A DNA stretch of 64,000 nt from Schmidtea polychroa. Lineage: Eukaryota. The stretch covers positions 18,230,001-18,294,000 of the forward strand of contig CM097885.1 of NCBI GenBank assembly GCA_044892525.1, written 5' to 3'. How positions within the stretch are numbered: position 1 is the first letter of the stretch; every line of letters begins with the position of its first letter. Made by a program: the position numbers and the translations under genes. Positions 4,910 through 36,611 of this stretch are shown here, piece by piece. Under the pieces are notes generated by a model. It was not told the DNA's origin and did not search any database. It saw nothing but the letters and a program-made list of their open reading frames with translations.

Positions 4910-5169
4910 CAGAGCCGTAGCTAGGGAAAATGGCGCCCGGGCGAGATTGAAATTTGGCGTCCCTGGTGCCAAAAGAATCCACCACTCCCATTAATTATGT
5001 ACTTACAGGAATGGAATTGATCTTAAAGAGTTAAATTAAGATGCAAAGCTATACAATGCTTAACCAAACTTATATTATAGTAGGTAGATAGTGGCTTACG
5101 GCAACAATTACCCCCCCCGGGGGGGGGGGGGGTTGTTGCAACTTTTTTTTGTTGCAACTTTTGATTACG

Positions 5170-5605
5170 CAATTTTTCACACTATAGTGAGGGGGTCTCG
5201 ATGGTCCTGGGATTTTCAATGCAAAAAAAATTTTTCTATACAAAAACGATGGTCCTGGGATTTGCAATACAAAAAAAATTTTTCTATACAAAAATCCGAC
5301 TACCACTAAAAAAGCATGGAATTTTCACACTATAGTGAGGGGGTCTCGATGGTCCTGGGATTTTCAATACAAATAAAATTTTTTCTATACAAAAACGATG
5401 GTCCTGGGATTTTCAATACAAATAAAATTTTTTCAATACAAAAAGGCGGTCTTCAATAAAAAAGCATGGAATTTTCATACTATAGTGAGGGGGTCTCGAT
5501 GGTCCGGGGATTTTCAATACAAAATTTTTTCAATACAAAAAGGCGGTCTTCAATAAAAAAGCATGGATTTTTCACACTATAGTGAGGGGGTCTCGATGGT
5601 CCTGA
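5170..5605. repeat. Subterminal 100-150 bp tandem units with the palindrome CACTATAGTG plus AGGGGGTCTCGATGGTCC (4 copies; 2 in the right arm at about 21380-21515)
   Basis: Seen directly. Confidence 0.9.
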
Positions 5606-5640
5606 GAAATAGGTGGTCTACACTAGAAAACGTGGTAAAT

Positions 5641-6770
5641 TTTTCAATTAAAGTAAATAATGGTTCTAAAAAATTAAATTATAGTAAATTATGGCTCAAA
5701 TTTTTAAATTACAGTAAATTATGGTCCTAAAAATTAAATTACAGTAAATTATGGTCCAAATTTTTAAATTAAAGTAAATTATGGTCCTAAAAAATAAATT
5801 ACAGTAAATTATGGCTCAAATTTTTAAATTACAGTAAATTATGGTCCAAATTTTTAAATTAAAGTAAATTATGGTTCTAAAAATTAAATTAAAGTAAATT
5901 ATGGCTCAAATTTTTAAATTACAGTAAATAATGGTTCTAAAAATTGAATTACAGTAAATAATGGTTCTAAAAATTAAATTAAAGTAAATTATGGTTCTAA
6001 AATATTAAATTAAAGTAAATTATGGTTCTAAAATATTAAATTAAAGTAAATAATGGTCCAGATTTTTCAATTAAAGTAAATAATGGTCCAAATTTTAAAA
6101 TTAAAGTAAATTATGGTCCTAAAAAATTAAATTACAGTAAATTATGGTCCAAATTTTTCTATTACAGTTAATTATGGTCCTAAAAAATTAAATTACAGTA
6201 AATTATGGTCCAAATTTTTCTATTACAGTTAATTATGGTCCTAAAAAATTAAATTAAAGTAAATTATGGCTCAAATTTTTCAATTACAGTAAATAATGGT
6301 TCTAAAAATTGAAATTACAGTAAATTATGGTCTAAAAATTGAAATTACAGTAAATTATGGTCTAAAAATTAAATTACAGTAAATTATGGTTCTAAAAATT
6401 AAATTAAAGTAAATAATGGTTCTAAAAATTTAATTAAAGTAAATTATGGTTCTAAAAATTAAATTAAAGTAAATTATGGTCCTAAAAAATTAAATTACAG
6501 TAAATAATGGTTCTAAAAATTGAATTAAAGTAAATTATGGTTCTAAAAATTGAAATTACAGTAAATTATGGTCTAAAAATTGAAATTACAGTAAATTATG
6601 GTCTAAAAATTAAATTACAGTAAATTATGGTTCTAAAAATTAAATTAAAGTAAATAATGGTTCTAAAAATTGAATTAAAGTAAATTATGGTTCTAAAAAT
6701 TAAATTAAAGTAAATTATGGTCCTAAAAAATTAAATTACAGTAAATAATGGTCCAAATTTTTAAATTAAG
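5641..6770. repeat. About 30-bp minisatellite (AAATTAAATTACAGTAAATTATGGTTCTAA), roughly 37 units
   Basis: Seen directly; the mirrored, shorter array is at about 20550-21345. Confidence 0.95.
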
Positions 6771-7189
6771 TAATCAATGGTAAAAAATTTTAAATAAGTA
6801 AATTAAAGTAATAATTTTTAAATAAGTAAATTAAAGTAATGTAATAAGTAAATTAAAGTAAGATTTTAAAATTTAATTACAAAATAATAGAAGGTGTTTG
6901 AGAATTGAAATTTTTTAATGAAAATTTTTATGAAATAATTTTTAAGTAATTTTTAATAGAAATTTTAATGAAATATTTTTCAATGGTAATTTTTAATGGA
7001 AATTTTTATGGAATAATTTTTTAAGTAATTTTTAATGGAAATTTTTATGAAATATTTTTCAATGATAATTTTAGATGGAAATTTTTATGAAATATTTTTC
7101 AATGATAATTTTAGATGGAAATTTTTAAGATAATTTTTAATGAAAATTTTTATGAAATATTTTTCAAAGACAAATTTTAATAATAATTC

Positions 7190-8640
7190 AACAACAAACC
7201 AACAACTTAGTACCAACAACCAGTAACTTATGAACATGTATTAACAACCAGATACCTACAACTAGTTACTAACAACCAGTTACCTGATACCATATACCTA
7301 CAACTAGATACCTACAACTAGTTACCTGATACCAACTACTAACAACCACCTACCCATTAACTAGCTACAACCAGCTAACTACTAGATACCACGTACTAAA
7401 TAACTCTCAAACAACCAAGTACTTACAACTAATTACCAGATACCAAGTACTATCAACCAGCTTACAACCTGATACCAACAACTAACAACCAACTACCAAG
7501 TACTTACAACTAGATACTAACAACCAGTTACCTGATACCAAGTACTCACAACCAACAACAACCAGGTACTAAGCATTATTAACCAACTACTAAGTACCTA
7601 CAACCAACCACCTACCAAGTACTAACAACCAACATCAACCAGGTACTAAGCATTAATTACCAACTACCAAGTACCTACCAAGTACCTACAACCACCTAAC
7701 AAGTACTAACAACCAGCTAACAACTAACAACTAGATACCAAGTACTCACAACCAACAACAACCAGGTACTAAGCATTATTAACCAACTACTAAGTACCTA
7801 CAACCAACCACCTACCAAGTACTAACAACCAACAACAACCAACTACTAAGTACCTACAACCAACTAAATACTAAGTACTAACAACCAACCAACTAGGTAC
7901 TAGATACTAAGTACTAACTACCAGCTAACAACTAGCTACCAAGTACTCACAACCAGATAACAACTAACAACCAGATACCAAGTACTTACAACTAGTTACT
8001 AACAACTAGCTACCACCTAACAAGTACTAACAACCAACATCAACCAGGTACTAAGCATTATCAACCAAGTACTAACAACTAGATACCTAGTTACTAACAA
8101 CCCGCTAACAACTAACAACTAGATACCAAGTACCAGTAAATTACGAACATGTATTAACAACCAGATACCTACAACTAGTTACTAACAACTAGTTACCTGA
8201 TAGCAACCAACTAGCTACCAACTACTAAGTACCTACAACTAACATCAACCAGGTACTAAGCATTAATTACCAACTACTAAGTACCTACAACCAACTAACA
8301 ACCACCTACCAAGTACTAAGCATTATCAACCAACTACTAAGTACCTACAACCAACTAGCTACCACCTACCAAGTACTAACAACCAGTTACCAACTACTAA
8401 GCATTAATTACCTACAACTAGTTACTAACAACTAGATACCAAGTACATACAACCAACTAGCTACCAACTACCAAGTACTAACAACCAGTTACCAACTACT
8501 AAGCATTAATTACCTACAACTAGTTACTAACAACTAGATACCAAGTACATACAACCAACATCAACCAGGTACTAGATACCAAGTACTAACAACCAAGTAA
8601 CTTACCTAGTAATAAGCACTGTCAACTAGATACCAAACAC
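7190..8640. repeat. Strand-skewed complex minisatellite (ACCAAGTACT / AACAACCA / ACTAGATACC words)
   Basis: A/C-rich, G-poor on +; mirrored at about 18670-20130. Confidence 0.9.
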
Positions 8641-8952
8641 TTACAAGCAGATGACCACATGAAATTATTGGTTAAATATGAAAATAAGGGTTATAATTAG
8701 TTGTTTAGTAAATTATGGTGTATAATTAAGTAATAAAGAATAATTAGGTAAATTAAAGTAATAATTTTTAAAAAAGTAAATTAAGGTTCAAATTTTAAAT
8801 TAAATAAGTAAATTAAAGTAATAATTTTTAAATAATTAATGTACTAAGTAAATTAAACTAAGATTTTTAAATTTATTATAAAAAGATTGAATAACCACCA
8901 ACTTTTTTGAGAAATGTAATTTATAATGGAAATTTAAATGGAAATTTAAATG

Positions 8953-9004
<52 letters not shown>

Positions 9005-11134
9005 TCAACAGTTACCAACAATCGGTTACTGATTATTTTTTAACTAGGTGCTAACAAATACTTACAACATGATACCACGTACTAACTAACTCTCAAACAA
9101 TCAGATACTTACAACTAGCTACTAAATATTCTTCACTGTATTTTATGAAATGCTTTTTAAATTAATTTTTTATCTATCTTCAAAAATATATTTAATTACA
9201 ATCATTAGAAAAACCTTTTCAAATTTAACAAAAATGATGATTTTCATCAAAAAACCACAACTCATCACCACGTGGAATTCAAAATAATTACAATGAAAGA
9301 CTAATGAATTCTAATTTACAAAACATTCTTCTTTTAAATGATAACTACTGACTTATTATTGCAATGTAAAAATCGCATTCAATAAATACTTATTGTTGAT
9401 CGGTTTTATTATATATACTCTGAGTTTATCCGACAGGATGTTTTGACCCCCTAAGGGTACAGGTCGTAAGGGTACTGGTCGTAAGGGTACTGGTCGTAAG
9501 GGTATTAGTCGTAAGGGTACTGGTCGTAAAGGTACTAGTCGTAGGGGTATTGATCACTCTTAATCCCCACCTACTCATTAATTAGCTACCATGTACTAAC
9601 CACTAGGTTTCAAACAACTAAATACTAAACACTTACAACCATGTACTAACAACCACCATCAAAACCCATCGAGAAATTAACAAATATCAACCTACAACTA
9701 GATACTTACAACCAGATACCTGCTACCAAGTACTTACAACAAGATACCAAGTACCAACAATCAACTAACCACACATAAAAATAATAGCAATTAAATACAA
9801 AATATTCTTCATCGCATACACTATTTTCTTATCAAAATCTAAAAAGTCAATCAGATACCAACTACCAAGTACCAAGTACTAACAACCAACTACCTAGAAC
9901 CAACAACTATGTACTAACAAATTGATCTTTAAAAGCAAATACTCTTCACTTGAAAAATTGGATGAAAAATTATTTGAACTCAAGGCATCAATAACTTGGT
10001 AAAAATTGATTAAATAATTGTAAAAATTTAAATTATTCAAAATAAATATCATAAAAATTTAATTAATGGACAAGAAAAAATTCTAATCATCCAATAAATA
10101 AAAAAAAATGCTGATCATTATCAAAGTCAGCAATCTACAATAAAAATAATTATCATTAAATTCCAAAAGAGACTAGATAACTAATGATAACATCTAACAA
10201 ACCAGTAAATTCATTCAAATGACAATAATTGGTATATCCAAGTGAATTCTCCAATAAAATCATCTAAAAAGCATCATTTTCTCCCTAAATATATCAATAT
10301 TTAAAGATTGGTATTTTAATGATAAGTACTTGTTAAAGATCATATATTCTCCTCAAACTAACAAGATTCCTTAAAATCCCCTTAAATGACTATATTTCAA
10401 CCCTTAATTCGTATTATTACAAATATTTCACTAAAATCATCTAAAAAGCATCAAATTTCCCTGAAATAACTATCTTTAAAGATTAGTATTTTATCGATAA
10501 ATATCCTTAAAAGGTTATATATTTACCTCAGACTAATAAGATTGCTTAAAATCCCCTTTAAATGACTTTAATTCCTATTATCACGAATATTATAAAACAT
10601 GTAAAATAATTTGGTCATTAACCCTAAATAATTGATAAAATCTAATGATAAAACCGGTTATAATTAAATTTTTGTTAATCACTGTACTCGAAATTTAAAA
10701 TAAATATAACTGACTAGGTCCCATTAAAAGATTAAATTTATCCATTCAATAAAATATATTTCTTCAAATGATCATTTTACCGATATTCAATCGATTTAAT
10801 TACTAATTAAAATCAATCGATAGATTTCTTTCAATAAAGATCAATTTTATTTAGTCGATGTTTTAAGTCCATATTTCTAAACTTTTGTCATTCTCCGTCT
10901 AAATAAAGATAAAAATAATTTAAAGTTGATATCAATCCCAATTATCTGTAAAGTTTTCATTGTCAAAACCAAGTAAATCGATCATTATCCTTACTTAATA
11001 ATCCATAAATCTAAATTAATATACAATGGATTAATCACAACCTAATAAAACGATATAATTATTATTGATTCATAACTGACTAATGTATTGCAATTTCCTT
11101 AAAAAACATTGATATTTTACCAACATCACCCTTA

Positions 11135-11380
11135 AAAAATCATATATTCCCATCGAAACCCTTCCCTCATTAAAAGCAATCGACTATATCCCCCTTACAA
11201 TCATATATTCCCATCTTAACCCATCCCTCATTAAATTCAATCGACTATATCTCCCTTACAATGATATATTCCCATCTTAACCCATCTCACATTAAATCTA
11301 ACCGACTATATCCCCTTAAAAGATCATATTTTCCCCATCTTAACCGATCACTCATTAAATCTCACCGACAATATCCCATC
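11135..11380. repeat. About 60-bp tandem repeat, roughly 4 units
   Basis: ATCATATATTCCCATCTTAACCCATCCCTCATTAAA...CGACTATATCCCCCTTA repeated; mirrored at about 15925-16170. Confidence 0.85.
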
Positions 11381-14300
11381 TTATCCGATCTCTCAGCAAA
11401 TATTTCTACCCTTTTAAACATCTATCCGATTATATCCCTTATTTTCCCTAAAGATTTCACCCACTTGAGCCCTTTAATATGTATCAATCCTCTTAAAATC
11501 CTCAGAGAACTTCAAAAATATGACTTTTAATTAATTGTTATAGAACCAGACAAATAATAAGAGCCCACTAAAAGATCAAAATTCACTAAATTTTCTACAA
11601 ATATATACCATCAAATACTGGAGATGATATATATTGATTGATCATAATTCTTCATCGATTCAGCCAATCATTTTCAAGCGCTATCAGCAAACTAAATTTC
11701 AGTATATTCTACAATCATTTTCAAGTAAATTTAAATTCCTTGTTAAAGTTAACTAGTTTCTTAGCTCATGTTTTTAAAAGTTCATCAATGAGTAAATATT
11801 CTTAGAAAATTATTGAAAAAATTATTTAGTGAAATATATTACAAACTTATCATTAAAAATTTATTCTATCACTTGAAATTAATTTTTATTTAAAAACTAT
11901 TCAATAAAATACCACTAATTATCAAGAAATTAATTAAATTTATCAATTAAATTTATCACCATTAAAACTTTTAATCAGTCAACATGAAATTCTTAGAAAA
12001 TTGTTCAATATCCTCATAAAAATTTATCCTACCACTTGATTATTGTACAAACTCTAATTATTAACCTCATTAAAAATTAAAAATACATCCAATTATCAAG
12101 AAATTAATTAAATTTATCTTAGAACTAACTTTGAATTATTAAATATTCATTCAATAATCATGAAATCCACAAAAATAATAGAAATTTACAAAAATCAAAG
12201 AAATTCACAAAAATGATAAAAATTCATGAAAATGATAGAAATTCACAAAAACGATAAAAATTCATAAAAATTATAGCAATTCGCAAAAATAATAGGAAAT
12301 TCACAAAAATGATAGATATCCACAAAAATTACAGATAATCAAAAAAATTACGGAAAATAATAGAAATCCGCAAAAATAATAGAAATTCACAATAAAAAAC
12401 GATAAAAATTCACAAAAAAGATAGAAATTTACTTGAATAAAACCATCAACTCTAAAAATTATGAATACCTTAAACAACAAATTTGCCTAAATAATCATTC
12501 AAATAAAAACATTAAATACCTTTACGACTAATACCCTTGCGACATGTTGAATGTGAGTAGTACCCTTGTGAGCAATACCCATAGGGGGACAGAATATTTT
12601 GTCGGATAAACTCAGAGTATATATTAATTAACTCATTTTTCATTGAATTAGTCAAATTATCATAAATTTCGATAAAAAATCTAAAGTGGTAAGCAATGTA
12701 AAGAGAAATATTCTTTAAACTTTGATAAAATTAACAATGAAGGTGGTAAGAATCTTCATTAAAGTGAGGAAATTACTCGATGATAAATTCAAATGGGTGA
12801 AAATAATTGGTAGAATAATTCATTAATGGAGGTAAATAATGAGAAGTGGCATAGATAAGAAGAAGGTTGATAAAAATGTAAATATATTAATTGAATTTAT
12901 TTAAAATTATTTCATAAAATTCATAAATTTAATAAAAAAACTTTTAAAACAAATATTTGTGGGGAATAATTAATCAAAATCGGGGGGATATTAGTGATTA
13001 ATTAATGGAAAATAGAGAATCGGGGAATACAAATGATTAAATAGTGGAAATTGGGGGAATATAGGAGATTAAATAGTGGGGTATTGAGAATCGGTGGAAT
13101 ATAAGTGAGAAGGATATGTAATTTAAACTATTTTATTACGTAACAAGCCATGACTAGTTTATTGCATAACAAGCTGTGAACGGGATTTTACCAACATTTT
13201 ACCTAGTATTGAATTTAATTTTTATTGTATTTTTAAATTGTATATATTTTCAATATCATTCTATTGTTTTATTCCAATAATAAGTTTAAAAAGTATATAA
13301 TGATTAATAAATTAATATCGTGTTAACATTTATTTGAGAATTTAAAAAACTTTACTTAAAATTTAGTGAAATATTTAATTTTGATTGTATTTTATAAGAC
13401 ATATATTTGAGTATTAACTTATTTTGATTGAAGTATTATATTCAATATTATGATGATTTTTTTTTCTAAATTAAAATATTTTAGTGTAAAATAGTAAATT
13501 TAATAATGAATAGAATACAATATTAAAGGACTTTTTAAAAAGAAAAATTACTTTCTATTACCTAATTCCATCATTAAGTTTAAGAAGTCTATAACTGTTA
13601 ATAAATCAATTTCTTATTCACATTTTCTTATAAAACTTATATTTTTAAATTAAGTGTAAAGAATTTAATTTTAATTGTATTTTATAAGTCATTTATTTGA
13701 ATATTTATCTTATTTTTATTGAAAGGAGTAATATAATTAATAATATGATAATTGTTTTTGAAATATTTAGTGTAGAATAATAAATTTATTAATAAATAAT
13801 TATTACAATATTAAAGGACTTATACAACAAAATTTTTGTCTTATTCCATAAAAAGTTTTAAAGTATATAACTGGTAATAAATTAATTTCTTATTTAAATT
13901 TATTTAAAAAAGCTTTACTTATAAAATTTATATTTTCGAAGACTTATATTTGAATATTAACTTATATTGATTGAAAAGGGTAATTGATTTAGAAATTAAT
14001 TAGTGTAAATCAAAACATTTAAATTATTAAGGTATTAAAGTACCTATTCAAAAATTTAAAAAAAAAAAAACCTAATCAATAATTTTCAATAAAATACTAT
14101 TCACAGCTTGTTATGTAATAAACTAGTCACGGCTTGTTATGTAATAAAATAGACGCGGCTTGTTACGTAATAAAATAGTTTAAATTACATATCCTTCTCA
14201 CTTATATTCCACCGATTCTCAATACCCCACTATTTAATCTCCTATATTCCCCCAATTTCCACTATTTAATCATTTGTATTCCCCGATTCTCTATTTTCCA

Positions 14301-17300
14301 TTAATTAATCACTAATATCCCCCCGATTTTGATTAATTATTCCCCACAAATATTTGTTTTAAAAGTTTTTTTATTAAATTTATGAATTTTATGAAATAAT
14401 TTTAAATAAATTCAATTAATATATTTACATTTTTATCAACCTTCTTCTTATCTATGCCACTTCTCATTATTTACCTCCATTAATGAATTATTCTACCAAT
14501 TATTTTCACCCATTTGAATTTATCATCGAGTAATTTCCTCACTTTAATGAAGATTCTTACCACCTTCATTGTTAATTTTATCAAAGTTTAAAGAATATTT
14601 CTCTTTACATTGCTTACCACTTTAGATTTTTTATCGAAATTTATGATAATTTGACTAATTCAATGAAAAATGAGTTAATTAATATATACTCTGAGTTTAT
14701 CCGACAAAATATTCTGTCCCCCTATGGGTATTGCTCACAAGGGTACTACTCACATTCAACATGTCGCAAGGGTATTAGTCGTAAAGGTATTTAATGTTTT
14801 TATTTGAATGATTATTTAGGCAAATTTGTTGTTTAAGGTATTCATAATTTTTAGAGTTGATGGTTTTATTCAAGTAAATTTCTATCTTTTTTGTGAATTT
14901 TTATCGTTTTTTATTGTGAATTTCTATTATTTTTGCGGATTTCTATTATTTTCCGTAATTTTTTTGATTATCTGTAATTTTTGTGGATATCTATCATTTT
15001 TGTGAATTTCCTATTATTTTTGCGAATTGCTATAATTTTTATGAATTTTTATCGTTTTTGTGAATTTCTATCATTTTCATGAATTTTTATCATTTTTGTG
15101 AATTTCTTTGATTTTTGTAAATTTCTATTATTTTTGTGGATTTCATGATTATTGAATGAATATTTAATAATTCAAAGTTAGTTCTAAGATAAATTTAATT
15201 AATTTCTTGATAATTGGATGTATTTTTAATTTTTAATGAGGTTAATAATTAGAGTTTGTACAATAATCAAGTGGTAGGATAAATTTTTATGAGGATATTG
15301 AACAATTTTCTAAGAATTTCATGTTGACTGATTAAAAGTTTTAATGGTGATAAATTTAATTGATAAATTTAATTAATTTCTTGATAATTAGTGGTATTTT
15401 ATTGAATAGTTTTTAAATAAAAATTAATTTCAAGTGATAGAATAAATTTTTAATGATAAGTTTGTAATATATTTCACTAAATAATTTTTTCAATAATTTT
15501 CTAAGAATATTTACTCATTGATGAACTTTTAAAAACATGAGCTAAGAAACTAGTTAACTTTAACAAGGAATTTAAATTTACTTGAAAATGATTGTAGAAT
15601 ATACTGAAATTTAGTTTGCTGATAGCGCTTGAAAATGATTGGCTGAATCGATGAAGAATTATGATCAATCAATATATATCATCTCCAGTATTTGATGGTA
15701 TATATTTGTAGAAAATTTAGTGAATTTTGATCTTTTAGTGGGCTCTTATTATTTGTCTGGTTCTATAACAATTAATTAAAAGTCATATTTTTGAAGTTCT
15801 CTGAGGATTTTAAGAGGATTGATACATATTAAAGGGCTCAAGTGGGTGAAATCTTTAGGGAAAATAAGGGATATAATCGGATAGATGTTTAAAAGGGTAG
15901 AAATATTTGCTGAGAGATCGGATAAGATGGGATATTGTCGGTGAGATTTAATGAGTGATCGGTTAAGATGGGGAAAATATGATCTTTTAAGGGGATATAG
16001 TCGGTTAGATTTAATGTGAGATGGGTTAAGATGGGAATATATCATTGTAAGGGAGATATAGTCGATTGAATTTAATGAGGGATGGGTTAAGATGGGAATA
16101 TATGATTGTAAGGGGGATATAGTCGATTGCTTTTAATGAGGGAAGGGTTTCGATGGGAATATATGATTTTTTAAGGGTGATGTTGGTAAAATATCAATGT
16201 TTTTTAAGGAAATTGCAATACATTAGTCAGTTATGAATCAATAATAATTATATCGTTTTATTAGGTTGTGATTAATCCATTGTATATTAATTTAGATTTA
16301 TGGATTATTAAGTAGGGATAATGATCGATTTACTTGGTTTTGACAATGAAAACTTTACAGATAATTGGGATTGATATCAACTTTAAATTATTTTTATCTT
16401 TATTTAGACGGAGAATGACAAAAGTTTAGAAATATGGACTTAAAACATCGACTAAATAAAATTGATCTTTATTGAAAGAAATCTATCGATTGATTTTAAT
16501 TAGTAATTAAATCGATTGAATATCGGTAAAATGATCATTTGAAGAAATATATTTTATTGAATGGATAAATTTAATCTTTTAATGGGACCTAGTCAGTTAT
16601 ATTTATTTTAAATTTCGAGTACAGTGATTAACAAAAATTTAATTATAACCGGTTTTATCATTAGATTTTATCAATTATTTAGGGTTAATGACCAAATTAT
16701 TTTACATGTTTTATAATATTCGTGATAATAGGAATTAAAGTCATTTAAAGGGGATTTTAAGCAATCTTATTAGTCTGAGGTAAATATATAACCTTTTAAG
16801 GATATTTATCGATAAAATACTAATCTTTAAAGATAGTTATTTCAGGGAAATTTGATGCTTTTTAGATGATTTTAGTGAAATATTTGTAATAATACGAATT
16901 AAGGGTTGAAATATAGTCATTTAAGGGGATTTTAAGGAATCTTGTTAGTTTGAGGAGAATATATGATCTTTAACAAGTACTTATCATTAAAATACCAATC
17001 TTTAAATATTGATATATTTAGGGGGAAAATGATGCTTTTTAGATGATTTTATTGGAGAATTCACTTGGATATACCAATTATTGTCATTTGAATGAATTTA
17101 CTGGTTTGTTAGATGTTATCATTAGTTATCTAGTCTCTTTTGGAATTTAATGATAATTATTTTTATTGTAGATTGCTGACTTTGATAATGATCAGCATTT
17201 TTTTTTATTTATTGGATGATTAGAATTTTTTCTTGTCCATTAATTAAATTTTTATGATATTTATTTTGAATAATTTAAATTTTTACAATTATTTAATCAA

Positions 17301-18301
17301 TTTTTACCAAGTTATTGATGCCTTGAGTTCAAATAATTTTTCATCCAATTTTTCAAGGGAAGAGTATTTGCTTTTAAAGATCAATTTGTTAGTACATAGT
17401 TGTTGGTTCTAGGTAGTTGGTTGTTAGTACTTGGTACTTGGTAGTTGGTATCTGATTGACTTTTTAGATTTTGATAAGAAAATAGTGTATGCGATGAAGA
17501 ATATTTTGTATTTAATTGCTATTATTTTTATGTGTGGTTAGTTGATTGTTGGTACTTGGTATCTTGTTGTAAGTACTTGGTAGCAGGTATCTGGTTGTAA
17601 GTATCTAGTTGTAGGTTGATATTTGTTAATTTCTCGATGGGTTTTGATGGTGGTTGTTAGTACATGGTTGTAAGTGTTTAGTATTTAGTTGTTTGAAACC
17701 TAGTGGTTAGTACATGGTAGCTAATTAATGAGTAGGTGGGGATTAAGAGTGATCAATACCCCTACGACTAGTACCTTTACGACCAGTACCCTTACGACTA
17801 ATACCCTTACGACCAGTACCCTTACGACCAGTACCCTTACGACCTGTACCCTTAGGGGGTCAAAACATCCTGTCGGATAAACTCAGAGTATATATAATAA
17901 AACCGATCAACAATAAGTATTTATTGAATGCGATTTTTACATTGCAATAATAAGTCAGTAGTTATCATTTAAAAGAAGAATGTTTTGTAAATTAGAATTC
18001 ATTAGTCTTTCATTGTAATTATTTTGAATTCCACGTGGTGATGAGTTGTGGTTTTTTGATGAAAATCATCATTTTTGTTAAATTTGAAAAGGTTTTTCTA
18101 ATGATTGTAATTAAATATATTTTTGAAGATAGATAAAAAATTAATTTAAAAAGCATTTCATAAAATACAGTGAAGAATATTTAGTAGCTAGTTGTAAGTA
18201 TCTGATTGTTTGAGAGTTAGTTAGTACGTGGTATCATGTTGTAAGTATTTGTTAGCACCTAGTTAAAAAATAATCAGTAACCGATTGTTGGTAACTGTTG
18301 A

Positions 18302-18365
<64 letters not shown>

Positions 18366-18669
18366 CATTTAAATTTCCATTTAAATTTCCATTATAAATT
18401 AAATTTCTCAAAAAAGTTGGTGGTTATTCAATCTTTTTATAATAAATTTAAAAATCTTAGTTTAATTTACTTAGTACATTAATTATTTAAAAATTATTAC
18501 TTTAATTTACTTATTTAATTTAAAATTTGAACCTTAATTTACTTTTTTAAAAATTATTACTTTAATTTACCTAATTATTCTTTATTACTTAATTATACAC
18601 CATAATTTACTAAACAACTAATTATAACCCTTATTTTCATATTTAACCAATAATTTCATGTGGTCATCT

Positions 18670-20130
18670 GCTTGTAAGTGTTTGGTATCTAGTTGACAGT
18701 GCTTATTACTAGGTAAGTTACTTGGTTGTTAGTACTTGGTATCTAGTACCTGGTTGATGTTGGTTGTATGTACTTGGTATCTAGTTGTTAGTAACTAGTT
18801 GTAGGTAATTAAAGCTTAGTAGTTGGTAACTGGTTGTTAGTACTTGGTAGTTAGTAGCTAGTTGGTTGTATGTACTTGGTATCTAGTTGTTAGTAACTAG
18901 TTGTAGGTAATTAATGCTTAGTAGTTGGTAACTGGTTGTTAGTACTTGGTAGGTGGTAGCTAGTTGGTTGTAGGTACTTAGTAGTTGGTTGATAATGCTT
19001 AGTACTTGGTAGGTGGTTGTTAGTTGGTTGTAGGTACTTAGTAGTTGGTAATTAATGCTTAGTACCTGGTTGATGTTAGTTGTAGGTACTTAGTAGTTGG
19101 TAGCTAGTTGGTTGCTATCAGGTAACTAGTTGTTAGTAACTAGTTGTAGGTATCTGGTTGTTAATACATGTTCGTAATTTACTGGTACTTGGTATCTAGT
19201 TGTTAGTTGTTAGCGGGTTGTTAGTAACTAGGTATCTAGTTGTTAGTACTTGGTTGATAATGCTTAGTACCTGGTTGATGTTGGTTGTTAGTACTTGTTA
19301 GGTGGTAGCTAGTTGTTAGTAACTAGTTGTAAGTACTTGGTATCTGGTTGTTAGTTGTTATCTGGTTGTGAGTACTTGGTAGCTAGTTGTTAGCTGGTAG
19401 TTAGTACTTAGTATCTAGTACCTAGTTGGTTGGTTGTTAGTACTTAGTATTTAGTTGGTTGTAGGTACTTAGTAGTTGGTTGTTGTTGGTTGTTAGTACT
19501 TGGTAGGTGGTTGGTTGTAGGTACTTAGTAGTTGGTTAATAATGCTTAGTACCTGGTTGTTGTTGGTTGTGAGTACTTGGTATCTAGTTGTTAGTTGTTA
19601 GCTGGTTGTTAGTACTTGTTAGGTGGTTGTAGGTACTTGGTAGGTACTTGGTAGTTGGTAATTAATGCTTAGTACCTGGTTGATGTTGGTTGTTAGTACT
19701 TGGTAGGTGGTTGGTTGTAGGTACTTAGTAGTTGGTTAATAATGCTTAGTACCTGGTTGTTGTTGGTTGTGAGTACTTGGTATCAGGTAACTGGTTGTTA
19801 GTATCTAGTTGTAAGTACTTGGTAGTTGGTTGTTAGTTGTTGGTATCAGGTTGTAAGCTGGTTGATAGTACTTGGTATCTGGTAATTAGTTGTAAGTACT
19901 TGGTTGTTTGAGAGTTATTTAGTACGTGGTATCTAGTAGTTAGCTGGTTGTAGCTAGTTAATGGGTAGGTGGTTGTTAGTAGTTGGTATCAGGTAACTAG
20001 TTGTAGGTATCTAGTTGTAGGTATATGGTATCAGGTAACTGGTTGTTAGTAACTAGTTGTAGGTATCTGGTTGTTAATACATGTTCATAAGTTACTGGTT
20101 GTTGGTACTAAGTTGTTGGTTTGTTGTTGA
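18670..20130. repeat. Mirror copy of the strand-skewed minisatellite
   Basis: Reverse complement of 7190-8640. Confidence 0.9.
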
Positions 20131-20549
20131 ATTATTATTAAAATTTGTCTTTGAAAAATATTTCATAAAAATTTTCATTAAAAATTATCTTAAAAATTTC
20201 CATCTAAAATTATCATTGAAAAATATTTCATAAAAATTTCCATCTAAAATTATCATTGAAAAATATTTCATAAAAATTTCCATTAAAAATTACTTAAAAA
20301 ATTATTCCATAAAAATTTCCATTAAAAATTACCATTGAAAAATATTTCATTAAAATTTCTATTAAAAATTACTTAAAAATTATTTCATAAAAATTTTCAT
20401 TAAAAAATTTCAATTCTCAAACACCTTCTATTATTTTGTAATTAAATTTTAAAATCTTACTTTAATTTACTTATTACATTACTTTAATTTACTTATTTAA
20501 AAATTATTACTTTAATTTACTTATTTAAAATTTTTTACCATTGATTACT

Positions 20550-21345
20550 TAATTTAAAAATTTGGACCATTATTTACTGTAATTTAATTTTTTAGGACCA
20601 TAATTTACTTTAATTTAATTTTTAGAACCATAATTTACTTTAATTCAATTTTTAGAACCATTATTTACTTTAATTTAATTTTTAGAACCATAATTTACTG
20701 TAATTTAATTTTTAGACCATAATTTACTGTAATTTCAATTTTTAGACCATAATTTACTGTAATTTCAATTTTTAGAACCATAATTTACTTTAATTCAATT
20801 TTTAGAACCATTATTTACTGTAATTGAAAAATTTGATCCATAATTTACTTTAATTTAATTTTTTAGGACCATAATTAACTGTAATAGAAAAATTTGGACC
20901 ATAATTTACTGTAATTTAATTTTTTAGGACCATAATTAACTGTAATAGAAAAATTTGGACCATAATTTACTGTAATTTAATTTTTTAGGACCATAATTTA
21001 CTTTAATTTTAAAATTTGGACCATTATTTACTTTAATTGAAAAATCTGGACCATTATTTACTTTAATTTAATATTTTAGAACCATAATTTACTTTAATTT
21101 AATATTTAGAACCATAATTTACTTTAATTTAAAAATTTGGACCATAATTTACTGTAATTTAAAAATTTGAGCCATAATTTACTGTAATTTATTTTTTAGG
21201 ACCATAATTTACTTTAATTTAAAAATTTGGACCATAATTTACTGTAATTTAATTTTTAGGACCATAATTTACTGTAATTTAAAAATTTGAGCCATAATTT
21301 ACTATAATTTAATTTTTTAGAACCATTATTTACTTTAATTGAAAA
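20550..21345. repeat. Mirror copy of the 30-bp minisatellite, roughly 26 units
   Basis: Reverse complement of 5641-6770 with fewer units. Confidence 0.93.
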
Positions 21346-22179
21346 ATTTACCACGTTTTCTAGTGTAGACCACCTATTTCTCAGGACCATCGAGACCCCC
21401 TCACTATAGTGTGAAAAATCCATGCTTTTTTATTGAAGACCGCCTTTTTGTATTGAAAAAATTTTGTATTGAAAATCCCCGGACCATCGAGACCCCCTCA
21501 CTATAGTGTGAAAAATTGCGTAATCAAAAGTTGCAACAAAAAAATTACGGCAACAAAAAAAAGTTGCAACAACCCCCCCCCGGGGGGGGGGGGGTAATTG
21601 TTGCCGTAAGCCACTATCTACCTACTTATTATAACGAAAACCAATTAATTATAAATATTTATTATACATGTGTATATACATTAATATTTAAAATTTCTTT
21701 ACTCCGTATTTATTAAACCTAAGTTCAGAGTTTTGATCATTAAGTTTCTATTAAGGTTACTATTATAATATATTTGAGAAGATCAAGTGATCAACTTTAA
21801 CATTTAACATTGAATTCTAAATAAAAGAAATTAAAGATTATCATCAATTGTCCTTCCTTTTTTCAAAAGATTTTCAAGATTTTTCTAGGCTAAGTAGCAT
21901 TTTCTATGCTCAAAACTGTTTTCATGATCAGCCATCTTCGGATTTAGTCGCCCGTTTGCAAAAACCTTTAGATATACCAGCAAAACAGTTTTGTTTTAGT
22001 TTAACTTCTGAAAACAGTAAACATGGAAACCAGAATATAAAAATTTAATATGAAAAAAAGAAAGAAAAGCAAAAAAAATTTAAATGATCATTTCACAGTT
22101 TTGGCGCCCTTCGACTCGGCGCCCGGGCGGTCGCCCCATTCGCCACCCCCTAGATACGACTCTGCTTTCCATAATCGGT

Positions 22180-25014: not shown

Positions 25015-25349
25015 TTGCAAATTTTCGACTGTTTGGTTTGTCCGTCGTATTTTAAAATCTAAGAAGGATTTACCTTTTAGATTAAATTGCTCGGGTTGAA
25101 ATTTTGGGTAATTGATAATGATTTAAATTCGCTATTTATATTATTTTCTGCGTCTTTCTTACTATTAAAATTAAATTAATATTTTTTAAGTGCTATTATT
25201 TGTTATTATTATTTGCATCATAAATATTTAAGTGTTATATTATCTTAGAGTAGTATGATTGGAGCTCCCCAGACCAGGAGCTCCCCGCGCCACATATACC
25301 CCCTCCCCCCCCCGGGAAAAAAAAATTTTTTTTTTTTAATTTTTTGTTT

Positions 25350-26420
25350 TAATTAATTGGCCTGGCGGGCTCACACTTTTTTTCATCCCAAAAATTAATG
25401 TTCTCGTTAACAGATTTTATTGACCGATACCTCATCTTAAAGCACAGTCCAAGACCTTTCGAATGAGCTATAGGTATCATATATATCTTTAATAGTTTTA
25501 ATGTTATTAACAATTGATGACCACCATCTTTTCAACGTTAAATTATTATTATTTTCCAAAATATTATTAATTGGCCTGGCGGGCTCACACTTTTTTTCAT
25601 CCCAAAAATTAATGTTCCCACCAACGGATTTTATTGGACGATACCTCATCTTAAAGCTCAGTCCAAGACCTTTCGATTGATCCATAGAAGGTATCATCAT
25701 CATTAATATTGACAAAGTTATTAACAATTGATGACCACCATCTTTTCAACGTTAAATTATTATTATTATTCAAAATATTATTAATTGGCCTGGCGGGCTC
25801 ACACTTTTTTTCATCCCAAAAATTAATGTTCCCATTATCCGAATTTATTAATCGATAGCTTATTTTGAAGCGTAGTCTAAGACCTTTCAATTGAGCCATA
25901 GAAGGTATCATCATCATTAACATCGGCAAAGTTATTAAAGTTTTACCGAGACCATTTTTCAAGGTCATTTATTTTTTCAAGGTCATTTATTTTTTCAAGG
26001 TCATTTATTTTTTCAAGGTCATTTATTTTTTCAAGGTCATATTTTAAAATTTAAATGTACAGAGTTCCCGACAACGATAATTATTCAACGATAGCTCATT
26101 TTAAAGCCCAATGCAAGATCTTTCGATTGATTCATAGAAGGTATCATCATCATTATTATTGACAAAGTTATTAACAATTGATGACCACCATCTTTTCAAC
26201 GTTAAATTATTATTATTATTCAAAATATTATTAATTGGCCGGGCGGTGACATACTTTTTCTCATCCCAAAAATTAATGTTCCCATTATCCGAATTTATTA
26301 ATCGATAGCTTATTTTGAAGCGTAGTCTAAGACCTTTCAATTGAGCCATAGAAGGTATCATCATCATTAACATCGGCAAAGTTATTAAAGTTTTACCGAG
26401 ACCATTTTTCAAGGTCATTT
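25350..26420. repeat. About 214-bp tandem units carrying five dyad-symmetric sites; mirrored at about 37030-38110
   Basis: TTAATTGGCCTGGCGGGCTCACAC recurs at about 25353, 25567, 25781 and (variant) 26231. Confidence 0.9.
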
Positions 26421-26585
26421 ATTTTTCAAAATATTATTTTCAAGGTCAAGGTCAAGGTCATTTATTTTTTCAAGGTCATTTAATTTTTAAATAAAAGGTC
26501 AAGGTCATTTATTATTTTCAAGGTCATTTATTTTTTCAAGGTCATTTATTTTTTCAAGGTCATTTATTTTTTCAAGGTCATTTAT
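25955..26585. repeat. 18-bp TTTTCAAGGTCATTTATT arrays (two blocks: about 25955-26040 and 26405-26585)
   Basis: Seen directly; mirrored at about 36880-37040 and 37405-37510. Confidence 0.92.
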
Positions 26586-26611
26586 TATTTTTTAAGTTTT
26601 TAGTTTCTAAG

Positions 26612-26663
<52 letters not shown>

Positions 26664-26835
26664 ATTATAGTTATAATTATAATTATTATATACTCCTAGT
26701 CTATCCGACAAGATATTCTGTCCCCCTATGGGTACTGCACACAAATGTACTACTCACACTCAACAAGTCACAAGGGTACTGCTCACACTCAATATGTCGT
26801 AAATTATTATTATTATTATTTCAAATACAAGTTCA

Positions 26836-26875
<40 letters not shown>

Positions 26876-27240
26876 TATTATTACGCGCACGGGGAATATT
26901 ATTGTCATATATACTCTTAATCTATCCGACAAAATATTCTATCCCTTTATGGGTATTGCTCATATGGGTAATGGTCAAAGGTGTACTACTCACATTCAAC
27001 ATGTCTCAAAGGGTATAATATAATTATTATTAAATTCTGACCAACTTAAATCAATGAAGGGGTAGAACAAAAATATATTAAGTTGCGGTATTTTAAATTT
27101 AAAAATATTTTAAAAACTTATTTTGACACTAAAGTTTACTTAATTAACAAAGACATAATTATTGCACATGCTTTGCATAAATATTATTATTATTTTTTTA
27201 ATTTTCAATATTTTCTTTTAAAGTATTAACACGCGCGGGA

Positions 27241-27314
<74 letters not shown>

Positions 27315-27318
<4 letters not shown>

Positions 27319-27827
27319 GTTAATGAAAAATCTAAAATATGGTTTACACACACAACCCCTCAACCATTATTATTATTATCAATATCAAAAACCTAAAATA
27401 TTTTCTACACACACACACATGCACAACTCATTAACCATTATTATTATCATTATTAGTGAAAACCTAAAATATTTTTTACACACACACACAACCCATTAAC
27501 CATTATTATTATTATTATCAATATTAAAAACCTAAAATATTTTTACACACACACATACAACTCATTAAACTTATTATTATTATTATTATTATTGCAAATA
27601 TTAGTCAAAAACCTAAAATATTATTTACACTCACACAACCCATTAACAATTATTATTATCAATATTAGTGAAAACCTAAAATATTTTCTACACACACACA
27701 CAACCCATTAACCATTATTATTATTGCAAATATTAGTCAAAAACATAAAAACACTCATAAACCATTATTATTATCAATATTCGTGAAAACCTCAAATATT
27801 TTTTACACACACACACAACCCATTAAC

Positions 27828-27884
<57 letters not shown>

Positions 27885-27920
27885 CAATATTAGTGAAAAA
27901 ACCTTAAATAATTTTTACAT
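27315..27920. repeat. About 65-bp minisatellite (AAAACCTAAAATATTTT..ACACACAC..AACCCATTAACCATTATTATT); mirrored at about 35530-36135
   Basis: Seen directly. Confidence 0.9.
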
Positions 27921-30900
27921 ACTAAGTTATGGGGTAGAGTATTATTATGTTTGCAGTATTCTGTGTTTGCCTTTACAGGAAGTTGTCAATAATTTTACAC
28001 ACACATTCTATATACACATACCTTGTTTAACATGGGTGTATATACTCCTAGTCTATCCGACAAAATATTCTGTCCCCCTATGGGTATTGCTCACAAAGGT
28101 ACTACTCACACTCAACATATCGCAAGGGTATATTAATTATGGTTAGTAAATAAAACCTATCACACACACTTTAATATTTAAACGAAAAAAAATCAAGACA
28201 AGAGAGGACAAGGCAAAGTTAATGCATTTAGTATTGCCAGGCCTAATGAGCAGTGACCAAATATCTGTGCCTGAAAGACACGGTGGATATTTGTTCGCGT
28301 CCACAAGGGTCGTCTGTGCCTCCCCCAAGTGGGGTCAGGAGAACCTGGGCATTATAGCTTTCCGTACGGAACATTACGCCTAGCATGGGTAGTCAACTAC
28401 CAGCACATTCGAAACGTATAATTTCAAAATACATGCGTCATTGGCACTATAACCAAATTAATTAATGTTTTCACTAACACAAAAATATATTTACAGAGGC
28501 CTCCCACTAGTTGGATTACAACCGCCCACCACGACGATCAGCTTGTAAATATATATTAATTAAGGGATAAAGAGGACCCACCCAACCCTATTATATTTAA
28601 TTTACAAATTTTTCTCGCTCTTCTGTTGGTATTCTATCTCAAAATTATCATCTCCATCGGGCCATTTGGAATACATCTTGCAAATTGGACGTATTTCTTA
28701 GTTTCTGATGCGGCGTCCACTATCATTGCTAAAATTTATATTGATTTAAAAGCAATTAACTTACATTATCTAACATTTTATCATCACAGGCTTGATAAAT
28801 TAGGCAACTGTTATTTGTGGTATACTTTTTCAATGTCATTTCCCACCATAAAACACAGATACCTAAATATAATATATATATATATTTTAAAAGATTAATT
28901 CATGTCTTACATTAATAATAATATTCTTCAGGTATGACGAGTACTTTACTTAATTGCTAAAACGTCGATTTTTCCCATTTTTCTTGACATTTGTTGAAAG
29001 TTTACATAATTTAAGTCTGATAATTCATGTTGAAGGACACCCACAATCAGCTAATTCATTTAAGAAATCCAGAACATAGCAATGTTTCACCATTTTATCT
29101 GGTTCATCTTCTTCATAATTATATAATTCATTTTCTTCATTACTAAGTAAATTAATTAAAATATTGTAGTAAATTCTTTATTTACTTACTTTATGGATAC
29201 TAAAACGAAAGAAATAAAGTTATATCAAAAGTATATTTAAATAAATTAAATTTAAATAATTTAATTTAGTTATTTAAAAATATTTAAACAATTTAGTTAT
29301 TTAAGCATATTTAAACATTAACATTATTATATAGTATAATTTTATATAATATTATAATTTTATGTACACTTATATATCCTTCATTTAATTTTTTAAATTC
29401 AAAATTTATAATGAAGATTCTTTGAATTAAAAAATATTCTGTTAGTATTTCCAGGCAGTAAACAACGAATTCAATAATTAAAATCTTAATTTTCATGTTG
29501 TTAGGGTTGTGGCCAGAATTTAATCGCCATCTAATCGTTTGTTCTCAATTTCGCTCATTTTTGTTCAAAACATTCAGGTGAGTTGTTATCTGGAAAGTTT
29601 CTTTGAGCTCAGTTTTGTTAAAACACTCACGGTATTTTTGAGGGACATGACACTGGGAATAAATTAACAATGGGTGGTCTTGCATACATGTTGTTGGTTT
29701 GAACTGTTGATTTATTTTAGAAATATGTATATTAAAAACATTTAAGGTATCATTCAGTAAAATAATATAGTATTTTTGAGTATTTTTAGTTGATTTATAA
29801 ATAACAGTATTTTGATATATCAATAAAGACCATATACTCCTAGTTTATCCGACAAAATATTCTGTCCCCCTATGGGTATTGCTAGCAAGGGTACATCTCA
29901 CATTCAACAAGTCGCAAGGCTATATTAATCATTTAGAAATTCTTAGGTAATTTAGTGAGATGATCAGAAATTCGTGAATATTTTAAATGTAACTTTACAC
30001 TTATGTCGAGCGACTAATTTATTGGTTAACTTTGTAGTCATTTAAAGCAAAAATTAATTTATTCATCTAATGTTCGTTACAATAGTTAATAATATGAGAA
30101 AAACATGGTCATTATTCATTGATAATTTTAAATTCTTTATCATTTGGAGTAAATTTGTTTGAGGCAAAAATAATTAAAGGAGTCATAATAGAAATATGGT
30201 TATCATTTATCCAATTAAGGGGCCTATTATTTAGAAATATATATTATAAAGTAACAATTATTTTCTAATTTAATTAGATGATCATTAGACGTAATATATC
30301 TTTGCGAGAAATTTAAGATGTTTGAGTAACCAAAACATGGACATTTTGTGCGATAAATTTATGAATATTGCTTAATTTTGTTATTTTTAGTCATTTAAAA
30401 TAATATTTAGCAAATGTAATTTAGCAAAATATCATTTATCCACCCGATAACAATATTCCTTCAATAGATTAACTGATATTCAACCTATTTAATTTCTGGA
30501 AATATAATTAAAATCATAAATTTCCTTCATGAAAGTTAAATTTTCTTTAGTTGTCGATGTCTAACTCTTTTAAGTCAATATTTTTGTTACCGTTATCTTC
30601 ATAATGAATGTCCGTCTTTAAAATGTTAAATAAAATAATTTAAAGCAATAACCTTTGATATCAATTATCTCTAAATATTTCAAATATTGCATTGTCAAAA
30701 CCAAGTAAATTAGTCATTACCCATTAATAAAACCGTGGATAATTAATAAAAACTGGTTCTGAAACATAAATTACTGTGCAATAACATTCATCACAACCTC
30801 TAAAACGATATAATTTCACAGGAACTATTCATAGCTGACTATTTCCCTTGAAAATTTGATATTTTACCAATAAGAATATATAAATATTCAAAACATTAAC

Positions 30901-33900: not shown

Positions 33901-35568
33901 GAATTAGCTGATTGGGGGTGTCCTTCAACATGAATGTTTACTTAAATTATGTAAACTTTCAACGAATGTCAAGAAAAATGGGAAAAAACCGATGTTTTAT
34001 CAATTAGATATTGTAAAGTACTACCTGAAGAATATTATTATTAATGTAAGACATGAATTAATTCTTTAAAATGAAGGATATATAAGTGTACATAAAATTA
34101 TAATATTATATAAAATTATACTATATAATAATGTTAATGTTTAAATATGCTTAAATAACTAAATTGTTTAAATATTTTTAAATAACTAAATTAAATTATT
34201 TAAATTTAATTTATTTAAATATACTTTTGATATAACTTTATTTCTTTCGTTTTAGTATCCATAAAGTAAGTAAATAAAGAATTTACTACAATATTTTAAT
34301 TAATTTACTTAGTAATGAAGAAAATGAATTATATAATTATGAAGAAGATGAACCAGATAAAATGGTGAAACATTGCTATGTTCTGGATTTCTTAAATGAA
34401 TTAGCTGATTGTGGGTGTCCTTCAACATGAATTATCAGACTTAAATTATGTAAACTTTCAACAAATGTCAAGAAAAATGGGAAAAATCGACGTTTTAGCA
34501 ATTAAGTAAAGTACTCGTCATACCTGAAGAATATTATTATTAATGTAAGACATGAATTAATCTTTTAAAATATATATATATTATATTTAGGTATCTGTGT
34601 TTTATGGTGGGAAATGACATTGAAAAAGTATACCACAAATAACAGTTGCCTAATTTATCAAGCCTGTGATGATAAAATGTTAGATAATGTAAGTTAATTG
34701 CTTTTAAATCAATATAAATTTTAGCAATGATAGTGGACGCCGCATCAGAAACTAAGAAATACGTCCAATTTGCAAGATGTATTCCAAATGGCCCGATGGA
34801 GATGATAATTTTGAGATAGAATACCAACAGAAGAGCGAGAAAAATTTGTAAATTAAATATAATAGGGTTGGGTGGGTCCTCTTTATCCCTTAATTAATAT
34901 ATATTTACAAGCTGATCGTCGTGGTGGGCGGTTGTAATCCAACTAGTGGGAGGCCTCTGTAAATATATTTTTGTGTTAGTGAAAACATTAATTAATTTGG
35001 TTATAGTGCCAATGACGCATGTATTTTGAAATTATACGTTTCGAATGTGCTGGTAGTTGACTACCCATGCTAGGCGTAATGTTCCGTACGGAAAGCTATA
35101 ATGCCCAGGTTCTCCTGACCCCACTTGGGGGAGGCACAGACGACCCTTGTGGACGCGAACAAATATCCACCGTGTCTTTCAGGCACAGATATTTGGTCAC
35201 TGCTCATTAGGCCTGGCAATACTAAATGCATTAACTTTGCCTTGTCCTCTCTTGTCTTGATTTTTTTTCGTTTAAATATTAAAGTGTGTGTGATAGGTTT
35301 TATTTACTAACCATAATTAATATACCCTTGCGATATGTTGAGTGTGAGTAGTACCTTTGTGAGCAATACCCATAGGGGGACAGAATATTTTGTCGGATAG
35401 ACTAGGAGTATATACACCCATGTTAAACAAGGTATGTGTATATAGAATGTGTGTGTAAAATTATTGACAACTTCCTGTAAAGGCAAACACAGAATACTGC
35501 AAACATAATAATACTCTACCCCATAACTTAGTATGTAAAAATTATTTAAGGTTTTTTCACTAATATTG

Positions 35569-35622
<54 letters not shown>

Positions 35623-36131
35623 GTTAATGGGTTGTGTGTGTGTGTAAAAAATATTTGAGGTTTTCACGAATATTGATAATAATAATGGTTTATGAGTGTT
35701 TTTATGTTTTTGACTAATATTTGCAATAATAATAATGGTTAATGGGTTGTGTGTGTGTGTAGAAAATATTTTAGGTTTTCACTAATATTGATAATAATAA
35801 TTGTTAATGGGTTGTGTGAGTGTAAATAATATTTTAGGTTTTTGACTAATATTTGCAATAATAATAATAATAATAATAAGTTTAATGAGTTGTATGTGTG
35901 TGTGTAAAAATATTTTAGGTTTTTAATATTGATAATAATAATAATAATGGTTAATGGGTTGTGTGTGTGTGTAAAAAATATTTTAGGTTTTCACTAATAA
36001 TGATAATAATAATGGTTAATGAGTTGTGCATGTGTGTGTGTGTAGAAAATATTTTAGGTTTTTGATATTGATAATAATAATAATGGTTGAGGGGTTGTGT
36101 GTGTAAACCATATTTTAGATTTTTCATTAAC

Positions 36132-36206
<75 letters not shown>

Positions 36207-36571
36207 TCCCGCGCGTGTTAATACTTTAAAAGAAAATATTGAAAATTAAAAAAATAATAATAATATTTATGCAAAGCATGTGCAATAATTATGTCTTTGT
36301 TAATTAAGTAAACTTTAGTGTCAAAATAAGTTTTTAAAATATTTTTAAATTTAAAATACCGCAACTTAATATATTTTTGTTCTACCCCTTCATTGATTTA
36401 AGTTGGTCAGAATTTAATAATAATTATATTATACCCTTTGAGACATGTTGAATGTGAGTAGTACACCTTTGACCATTACCCATATGAGCAATACCCATAA
36501 AGGGATAGAATATTTTGTCGGATAGATTAAGAGTATATATGACAATAATATTCCCCGTGCGCGTAATAATA

Positions 36572-36611
<40 letters not shown>

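Follow-up and report, generated by a model that had tools for sequence, protein, structure and literature searches.

A gene-less palindromic element with Maverick ends in Schmidtea polychroa, a probable helper-length satellite of coding Mavericks

Element A is a palindrome of 16,548 bp (26% GC) without genes that occupies positions 5079..21626 of a 64,000-nucleotide stretch of Schmidtea polychroa DNA (the window; G000:C1:18,230,001-18,294,000, where C1 is contig CM097885.1 of the 781-Mb assembly GCA_044892525.1), as delimited by self-comparison and arm alignment. Positions given below are those of the window unless a contig (C1, C2 or C3) or a locus (L) is named. The family to which element A belongs is real, abundant and recently mobile. 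It shares its ends and its approximate length with a family of coding Mavericks (also known as Polintons), here called MA, and comparison of the sequences indicates that it is very probably moved in trans by Maverick enzymes. We propose that element A is a gene-less, helper-length, fold-back satellite of family MA, and consider this whole mechanism, including a length set by the helper's capsid, to be probable.

Self-comparison of the window revealed two large inverted repeats, at 5079-21626 (element A) and 25249-38225 (element B). The left arm of element A (5079-13149, 8.07 kb) and its right arm (14157..21626, minus strand, 7.47 kb) align end to end with 7,427 matches and 12 mismatches over 7,439 aligned bases, and the five indels between them (17, 298, 121, 211 and 12 bp) are all gains or losses of repeat units. 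The termini read AGTAG...CTACT, with TATTAT on either side, at 5073..5078 and 21627..21632 (both plus strand), as expected of a target-site duplication (TSD). Because TATTAT is a low-complexity sequence, the duplication was tested by means of empty sites. Flank comparison places the insertion within a small inverted-repeat element of the host, whose left and right parts lie at 4912..5078 and 21627..22162 (both plus strand). The 20 best left-flank loci were taken (40 were scored of 361 candidates), one of them being the window itself; in all 19 other copies of the host repeat a single hexamer joins the left to the right flank, with an overlap of 6 bp in 18 copies and of 5 bp in one, where the match ended one base short. 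Element A is thus confirmed as a genuine insertion into a small host repeat with a 6-bp TSD.

No gene was recovered from the element by any of several searches. The longest stop-to-stop frame within it is 118 aa; tblastn of 52 helper open reading frames (ORFs) against 27 gene-less copies gave no matches, and when a capsid profile was run on six-frame fragments of the gene-less copies, the positive control alone matched. A tblastx comparison between the non-coding cores of elements A and B brought out no hidden gene, the frames being ridden with stops, and an Rfam scan of window positions 1-40000 for structured RNA yielded six weak matches, every one far under the gathering score. An initial annotation, made from the letters of the window, had described a palindrome with these arms and this spacer, AG...CT ends and a 6-bp TSD, with arms differing by a few substitutions and repeat copy number and with no credible ORF, and had suggested a self dot-plot as a check; the self-comparison, the alignment, the empty sites and the gene searches agree with it on each of these points. 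Short read contigs, none of them spanning, gave a greater summed depth over the arm than over the spacer in two runs, a depth figure that is not a copy number.

Four coding Mavericks with A-type ends make up family MA (at C1:43.44, 215.70, 1.84 and 10.48 Mb), each with its own 6-bp TSD; they measure 16,905, 16,646, 17,077 and 16,575 bp (mean 16.8 kb, standard deviation (SD) 0.23, n = 4). A match to PF03175, marking pPolB, lies inside all four, and the family also encodes an A32-like ATPase, an adenain-like protease (PF00770) and an rve integrase that carries a chromodomain. Its 407-aa protein is predicted to fold as a double jelly-roll major capsid protein: the predicted model (predicted local distance difference test, pLDDT, 92.5) matches the major capsid proteins of PBCV-1, iridovirus and mavirus with E values from 4e-15 to 7e-14. 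Two further MA ORFs are, by their position, putative pentons. A second coding family, MB, has B-type ends and is represented at C1:86.30 Mb by a copy of 16,913 bp with a TSD. Gene order is the same in MA and MB, with proteins 44-84% and genes 67-75% identical (gaps excluded), and no alignment of the two families' terminal inverted repeats (TIRs) was obtained. Both families contain a TATA-binding-protein-like ORF of 154-158 aa (L062:7365-7841, plus strand, and L115:2945-3406, minus strand; PF00352, E 3e-16 and 9e-16); penton-like ORFs number two in MA and one in MB, and pPolB stops early in one MA copy.

What element A shares with MA is confined to its ends. The helper's own TIRs, of about 1.4-2.1 kb, match the window from 5079 to about 7100-7190, and the left helper-type TIR (5079..7190, plus strand) matches that of MA at 74-82% over 1.1-2.0 kb, repeat-number gaps included. 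It contains the AGTAG end, a C-run/G-run, repeats of 48, 97 and 150 bp, a 30-bp array (5646-6805) and repeats of 40 and 79 bp; its right counterpart, placed by arm alignment at 20128..21626 (minus strand), has fewer repeat units. Past the outer ~2 kb, the one match of element A to MA lies at 8734..8943 (plus strand), where an inner part of the TIR (6724-6935) recurs as a diverged second copy (72%). An A/C-rich block of degenerate, strand-skewed repeats at 7198..8640 (plus strand), mirrored at about 18660-20120, has no helper counterpart in sequence comparison. Further inward are a dispersed motif of ~100 bp (TATCCGACA...GGGTA) with 15-bp repeats at 9405..9550 (plus strand; mirrored at 17879, minus strand) and the non-coding core at 10736..12938 (plus strand; mirrored at 14368-16570), which is collinear in alignment with 30434-32080 of element B and contains the 15-mer counted below and a second copy of the motif at 12608 (minus strand). 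The unpaired spacer defined by the arm alignment (13150..14156) has junction repeats of 26 bp, and part of it is duplicated internally (13259-13732 / 13553-13984, 71%). The inner ~6 kb of each arm has no match to helper genes; core and spacer together (9560-14150) find no match in the four MA copies, and in MB a match restricted to the dispersed motif.

The same ends recur throughout the genome. The exact terminal 34-mer has 54 matches, with 17 pairs 15.5-17.9 kb apart and one pair 36.6 kb apart, and a looser A-type end pattern has 2,807 (1,403 plus, 1,404 minus; control 0). A core 15-mer common to elements A and B matches at 4,343 places (control 6), and in the first 13 Mb of C1 it lies within 9 kb inward of 36 of the 59 A-type ends; by extrapolation the gene-less A-type elements number ~850 and take up about 1.5-2% of the assembly. 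A motif of the ATPase, with 258 matches, catches all four MA copies and misses the MB copy, so that coding elements number at least 258. Perfect 6-bp TSDs, all different, flank 19 of 24 gene-less A-type loci inspected (one inside a TA tract), the rest comprising four loci with mirrored flanks and one with a damaged end. When loci were chosen by core rather than by ends, six of seven had a TSD, and among all gene-less loci inspected a perfect TSD was seen in 24 of 31. Viral contigs searched with the end pattern and the dispersed motif, and metagenome contigs searched with the motif, gave no match.

Element B (25249..38225), identified by self-comparison and alignment, is a sister gene-less palindrome of 12,977 bp with the TSD TCTTAG, MB-type ends and a core related to that of A. 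B-type ends, with 804 genome matches, differ from A-type ends, but the two elements have cores that stay collinear for about 2 kb, at 81-84% identity excluding gaps (65-72% with gaps). Since the cores are closer to each other than are the genes of MA and MB, whose TIRs are unalignable, a helper switch is the simplest reading: A and B would probably belong to a single satellite lineage, which acquired its second set of ends from another helper. Junctions between MA sequence and an MB end do exist. The alternatives are strong constraint on the core, or an inflated identity of AT-rich alignments.

We envisage the following mechanism. Element A would keep just the ~2-kb ends of its helper, which are expected to hold the protein-primed replication origin and the integrase sites, and non-coding DNA, laid out as an inverted dimer whose unit is ~8 kb, would make up the remainder. 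The helper's pPolB would copy it from either end by strand displacement, as the shared ends and knowledge of the family suggest; a displaced or stalled nascent strand would then fold back, so that one arm is re-copied from the other, the mirroring being observed and its timing supposed. The length of the dimer would equal that of the helper because near-helper-length genomes get packaged, a step for which the match in length is observed and packaging is supposed by analogy with gutless adenovirus vectors. A Maverick integrase would finally insert the element with the 6-bp TSD seen around it, and over time the core lineage would change helper by capturing new ends, as the measured divergence suggests.

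The initial annotation had offered three descriptions, a non-autonomous, a defective-interfering or a satellite-like Maverick, of near-genome length, and had looked to a coding Polinton with the same terminal sequence and to further copies with different 6-bp TSDs for support. Such a Polinton exists, the four MA copies sharing the A-type termini and the outer ~2 kb; the copies and their TSDs are likewise found, and the length holds for the two-arm copies described below. Defective interfering genomes are pieces of their helper, and their snap-back or copy-back forms are palindromic. Element A has this palindromic form, and the helper's pPolB end does yield palindromes here: in two cases, of 13.3 and 11.2 kb with TSDs, the pPolB end of MA is duplicated in inverse. 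About three quarters of element A, by contrast, is not helper DNA, and its lineage is a lasting one shared across two helpers, which in sequence terms sets it apart from a plain defective interfering genome. Because the inner arm is foreign to the helper and common to another family's satellite, "satellite" fits better than "fresh defective-interfering genome", and element A is not a simple deletion of today's helper; being largely unrelated to that helper apart from cis signals, it would qualify as a satellite nucleic acid. These two pPolB-end palindromes belong to a third palindromic family, in which the pPolB end of MA is inverted around a centre with MB terminal sequence; it was seen at L107+L108 (C1:9.09 Mb), L109+L110 (C1:9.48 Mb) and L073-L075 (C3:32.5 Mb), and truncated relatives occur at C2:5.21 Mb and at C1:243.2 Mb.

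A copies that have two arms and a TSD are 14.2-17.7 kb long (mean 16.3, SD 1.05, n = 15), the helper copies 16.6-17.1 kb (n = 4), and a length of 85-105% of the helper's is kept across subfamilies 5-8% apart and after major rearrangement. In the first 22 Mb of C1, 28 pairs of A-type ends lie less than 25 kb apart (coding copies counted in, six pairs with a spacing of 26-40 kb set aside); their median spacing is 16.2 kb, and 27 of them are at or below 17.7 kb. A test for length compensation gave r = -0.41 (p = 0.12, n = 15 related copies, two copies without the landmark left out). Vertebrate Mavericks average 16,862 +/- 1,678 bp, and their authors take this ~10% variation around 17 kb as a size constraint (PMC8097293). 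In adenovirus, a 15-kb helper-dependent vector entered the capsid in the form of dimers, both direct and inverted, and rearrangement befalls genomes that are not within 75-105% of the wild-type length (PMC4189039). By analogy we infer that element A may be packaged in the helper capsid, and we lean slightly towards a length set by that capsid.

The same helper could, on the other hand, act on element A without any capsid. The element would then be an intracellular non-autonomous Maverick, with long arms favoured for efficient single-strand folding and excision and a length that is inherited or set by replication. Such an element accounts equally well for the shared ends, the TSDs and the palindrome, and is in keeping with a model of Polinton transposition by TIR annealing and excision (bioRxiv 10.64898/2026.07.28.741278), with the existence of short copies with TSDs, with B copies that are on average shorter than their helper, and with Maverick particles being unobserved (PMC8097293). 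Gene-less derivatives usually shrink, however, most non-autonomous lizard elements being under 2 kb (PMC3014272), whereas the two-arm copies and the A-type pairs hold the lengths just given; we regard this explanation as unlikely, though to be taken seriously.

The arms themselves were compared over four non-repeat blocks in eleven copies, the eleventh, a rearranged one, being aligned over 376 sites alone. Inside one copy the left and right arms differ by 0-6 substitutions per 2.8-3.5 kb (under 0.2%), divergence between ten copies is 0.1-7.9%, and the two arms of one copy are sisters in 10 of the 11. Among private changes in the ten copies (2,002 sites), 83 are mirrored in both arms and 10 are one-armed. 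With arms alike within a copy while the copies have diverged, the arms are evidently re-copied from each other, and the data suggest that now and then one arm folds back and serves as the template for the other. Mirroring extends to rearrangements: at C3:45.93 Mb (17,230 bp) spacer and core are reversed in both arms about a new centre with the TSD kept, and at C2:144.84 Mb one arm extends into the spacer. Panhandle repair is known at adenovirus ends.

We think it probable that the arms are equalised during the element's own replication. Host gene conversion acting after insertion, as in long chromosomal palindromes, would leave that replication uninvolved and would likewise make arms more alike within than between copies, but it is an improbable source of the pattern: perfect TSDs are found in all 15 two-arm copies with distinct flanks, an outcome with a chance of about 0.004 if each site had diverged by 6% after insertion (exact ends were the basis for choosing ten of the 15, which favours young copies), two copies retain neighbouring arms 77-87% alike, and differences in repeat number between arms persist.

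Arms made or equalised by the assembly itself, through fold-back reads or consensus polishing, would also look alike, and mirrored flanks at five of the 31 gene-less loci (L051-L052, L067-L070, L087-L088, L099-L100 and L117-L118), matching over 1,500 bp with 0-1 mismatch in the two measured, could be cited in support; these five may be misassemblies or true inverted duplications seeded by the element. An artefact is nevertheless very improbable as an account of element A, since the two flanks of the window copy differ from each other and adjoin directly at all 19 empty sites, perfect TSDs are found at most of the 31 loci, arms differ in repeat number and by a few substitutions, and copies with unlike arms exist.

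Several observations weigh against a satellite of capsid-set length with regularly equalised arms. Perfect TSDs are found as well around four shorter A-type copies (7.1, 9.2, 9.8 and 10.9 kb); these short copies are lopsided and may reflect deletions after insertion. B-type pairs have a median of 13.8 kb, about 82% of helper length (n = 37, range 6.2-17.7 kb, coding copies kept in). In the youngest four copies private changes are 6 mirrored and 8 one-armed, so the arms are not equalised at every step, and the two copies with unlike arms, one of them with a matching TSD, imply that subfamilies recombine and, at the same time, that assembly does not force arm identity. The integrase is split in two frames, the first piece being 167 aa, in all four MA copies (L061-L062, L081-L082, L101-L104). 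The alignments behind the core identity of A and B are AT-rich and gappy, so that the figure may be inflated, and the four A-type loci with mirrored flanks among the 24 may be misassembled. The evidence for element A comes from assembled sequence.

FB of Drosophila is a foldback transposon. That element A belongs to the foldback elements of some cut-and-paste superfamily (Galileo/P, FB or Mutator-like) and has ends that only look like those of Mavericks is hardly credible: Galileo does have long arms with internal repeats, and these can extend into internal DNA, but the ends of element A belong to coding Mavericks with 6-bp TSDs, and Galileo TIRs reach about 1.25 kb, with a TSD of 7 bp (PMC3573991). 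As a likeness Galileo is nonetheless instructive, in that its long TIRs contain internal tandem repeats and are longest in non-autonomous copies, the TIRs extend, and one core occurs with TIRs of several subfamilies; it differs in being about ten times shorter than element A, in its cut-and-paste transposase and in its chimeras, which have non-matching TSDs (PMC3573991), whereas an unlike-arm copy here has a matching one.

The satellite proposed here can also be set beside other Mavericks and viral vectors. Element A resembles an autonomous Maverick/Polinton in its AG..CT ends, 6-bp TSD, length near 17 kb and outer 2 kb shared with a coding family, and differs in lacking genes for pPolB, integrase, capsid, ATPase and protease. 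It is not an autonomous Maverick, being gene-less and having arms that are too long; with termini shared with a coding Maverick, many dispersed insertions and distinct TSDs, it appears to be a non-autonomous one. Kapitonov and Jurka reportedly described non-autonomous Polintons of zebrafish in 2006. The inverted repeats of 7.5-8 kb compare with 46-1,447 bp in a vertebrate set (PMC8097293) and 100-1,500 bp in a nematode set (PMC10748475); the ends of element B are canonical (AGTAGT..ACTACT), and AGTAGG in element A is a variant of the (AGT)2 motif (PMC8097293). Tlr1, as sometimes viewed (PMC5499653), and polB-lacking butterfly polintons, which remain mobile (bioRxiv 10.1101/2025.02.07.637071), are likewise trans-dependent and bounded by Polinton TIRs, but keep many genes. 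Gutless adenovirus vectors share with element A the combination of ends and non-coding stuffer, and a half-length unit of theirs reaches full length as an inverted dimer; they are engineered and non-integrating with packaging demonstrated (PMC4189039), while element A is natural and integrated in hundreds of copies, with packaging presumed. The available text of the literature surveyed, including PMC6431247, PMC10680173, PMC8532177, PMC9863843 and bioRxiv 2024.01.15.575659 and 2025.12.11.693146, holds no description of a gene-free, full-length palindromic Maverick with a helper-foreign core; Kapitonov and Jurka 2006, Repbase and Dfam lay beyond the reach of the survey, so an entry may exist. 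The flatworm literature surveyed does not, in its available portions, mention palindromic Mavericks, and the nearest described elements are the polB-lacking butterfly polintons and Galileo foldback copies.

More tentatively, these elements may be a self-sustaining lineage of endogenous, gene-free DNA satellites of polintoviruses, in effect gutless vectors of natural origin. Inverted dimerisation would bring them to capsid length, and they would travel in the helper virion, use its integrase, outnumber the helper several-fold and switch helper by end capture. If so, they would provide genomic evidence for virion formation by an animal Maverick and constitute a satellite class not yet described for polintoviruses. 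Whether animal Mavericks form particles, and how they replicate, are unsettled questions that element A makes testable: nothing in the coding of a gene-free element calls for 16-17 kb, so that its length reports cleanly on any capsid constraint, mirrored mutations in the arms are a record of the replication mechanism, and hundreds of young copies in one genome bring both questions within reach of counting and sequencing. Repeat annotation based on proteins would miss the A family, which may give rise to misassembly or to genuine rearrangements.

The dispersed motif occurs in the window at 9427, 12608, 14698 and 17879 and at nine places in element B, with 15,078 pattern matches genome-wide; it is present in the MB TIR and in none of the four MA copies. 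As proof of an MB origin for the A core it was dropped, given its copy number and its presence in an unrelated small insertion as well. It folds weakly as DNA (-6.4 kcal/mol); a small mobile unit and a binding site are both conceivable, and it may resemble Helentron-type ends.

Other Maverick remains and genes surround elements A and B. A 28-kb B-ended locus at C2:71.90 Mb (L076-L078), probably nested or chimeric, combines a B arm with genes from another type of Maverick, and ORFs at 62296-63795 (plus strand) of the window resemble by eye those of this locus, with no Pfam match. Two intronless copies of an amidase gene (PF01425), at 41313-43270 and 52466-54426, are 96% alike, the second having a shorter frame. 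A hAT-like transposase with a Spin-doc zinc finger lies at 57559-59523 (plus strand), a decayed element similar to it at 24020-25014 (plus strand), and remains that by eye are like those of a long terminal repeat retrotransposon at 22180-24000 (minus strand). At the left edge of the window, 32-3128 is the pPolB gene of an MB-like Maverick, interrupted at 830-1220 by an insertion of ~380 bp in which inverted repeats rich in GC, a tract of ATT and the dispersed motif are found and which is apparently flanked by an 8-bp direct repeat.

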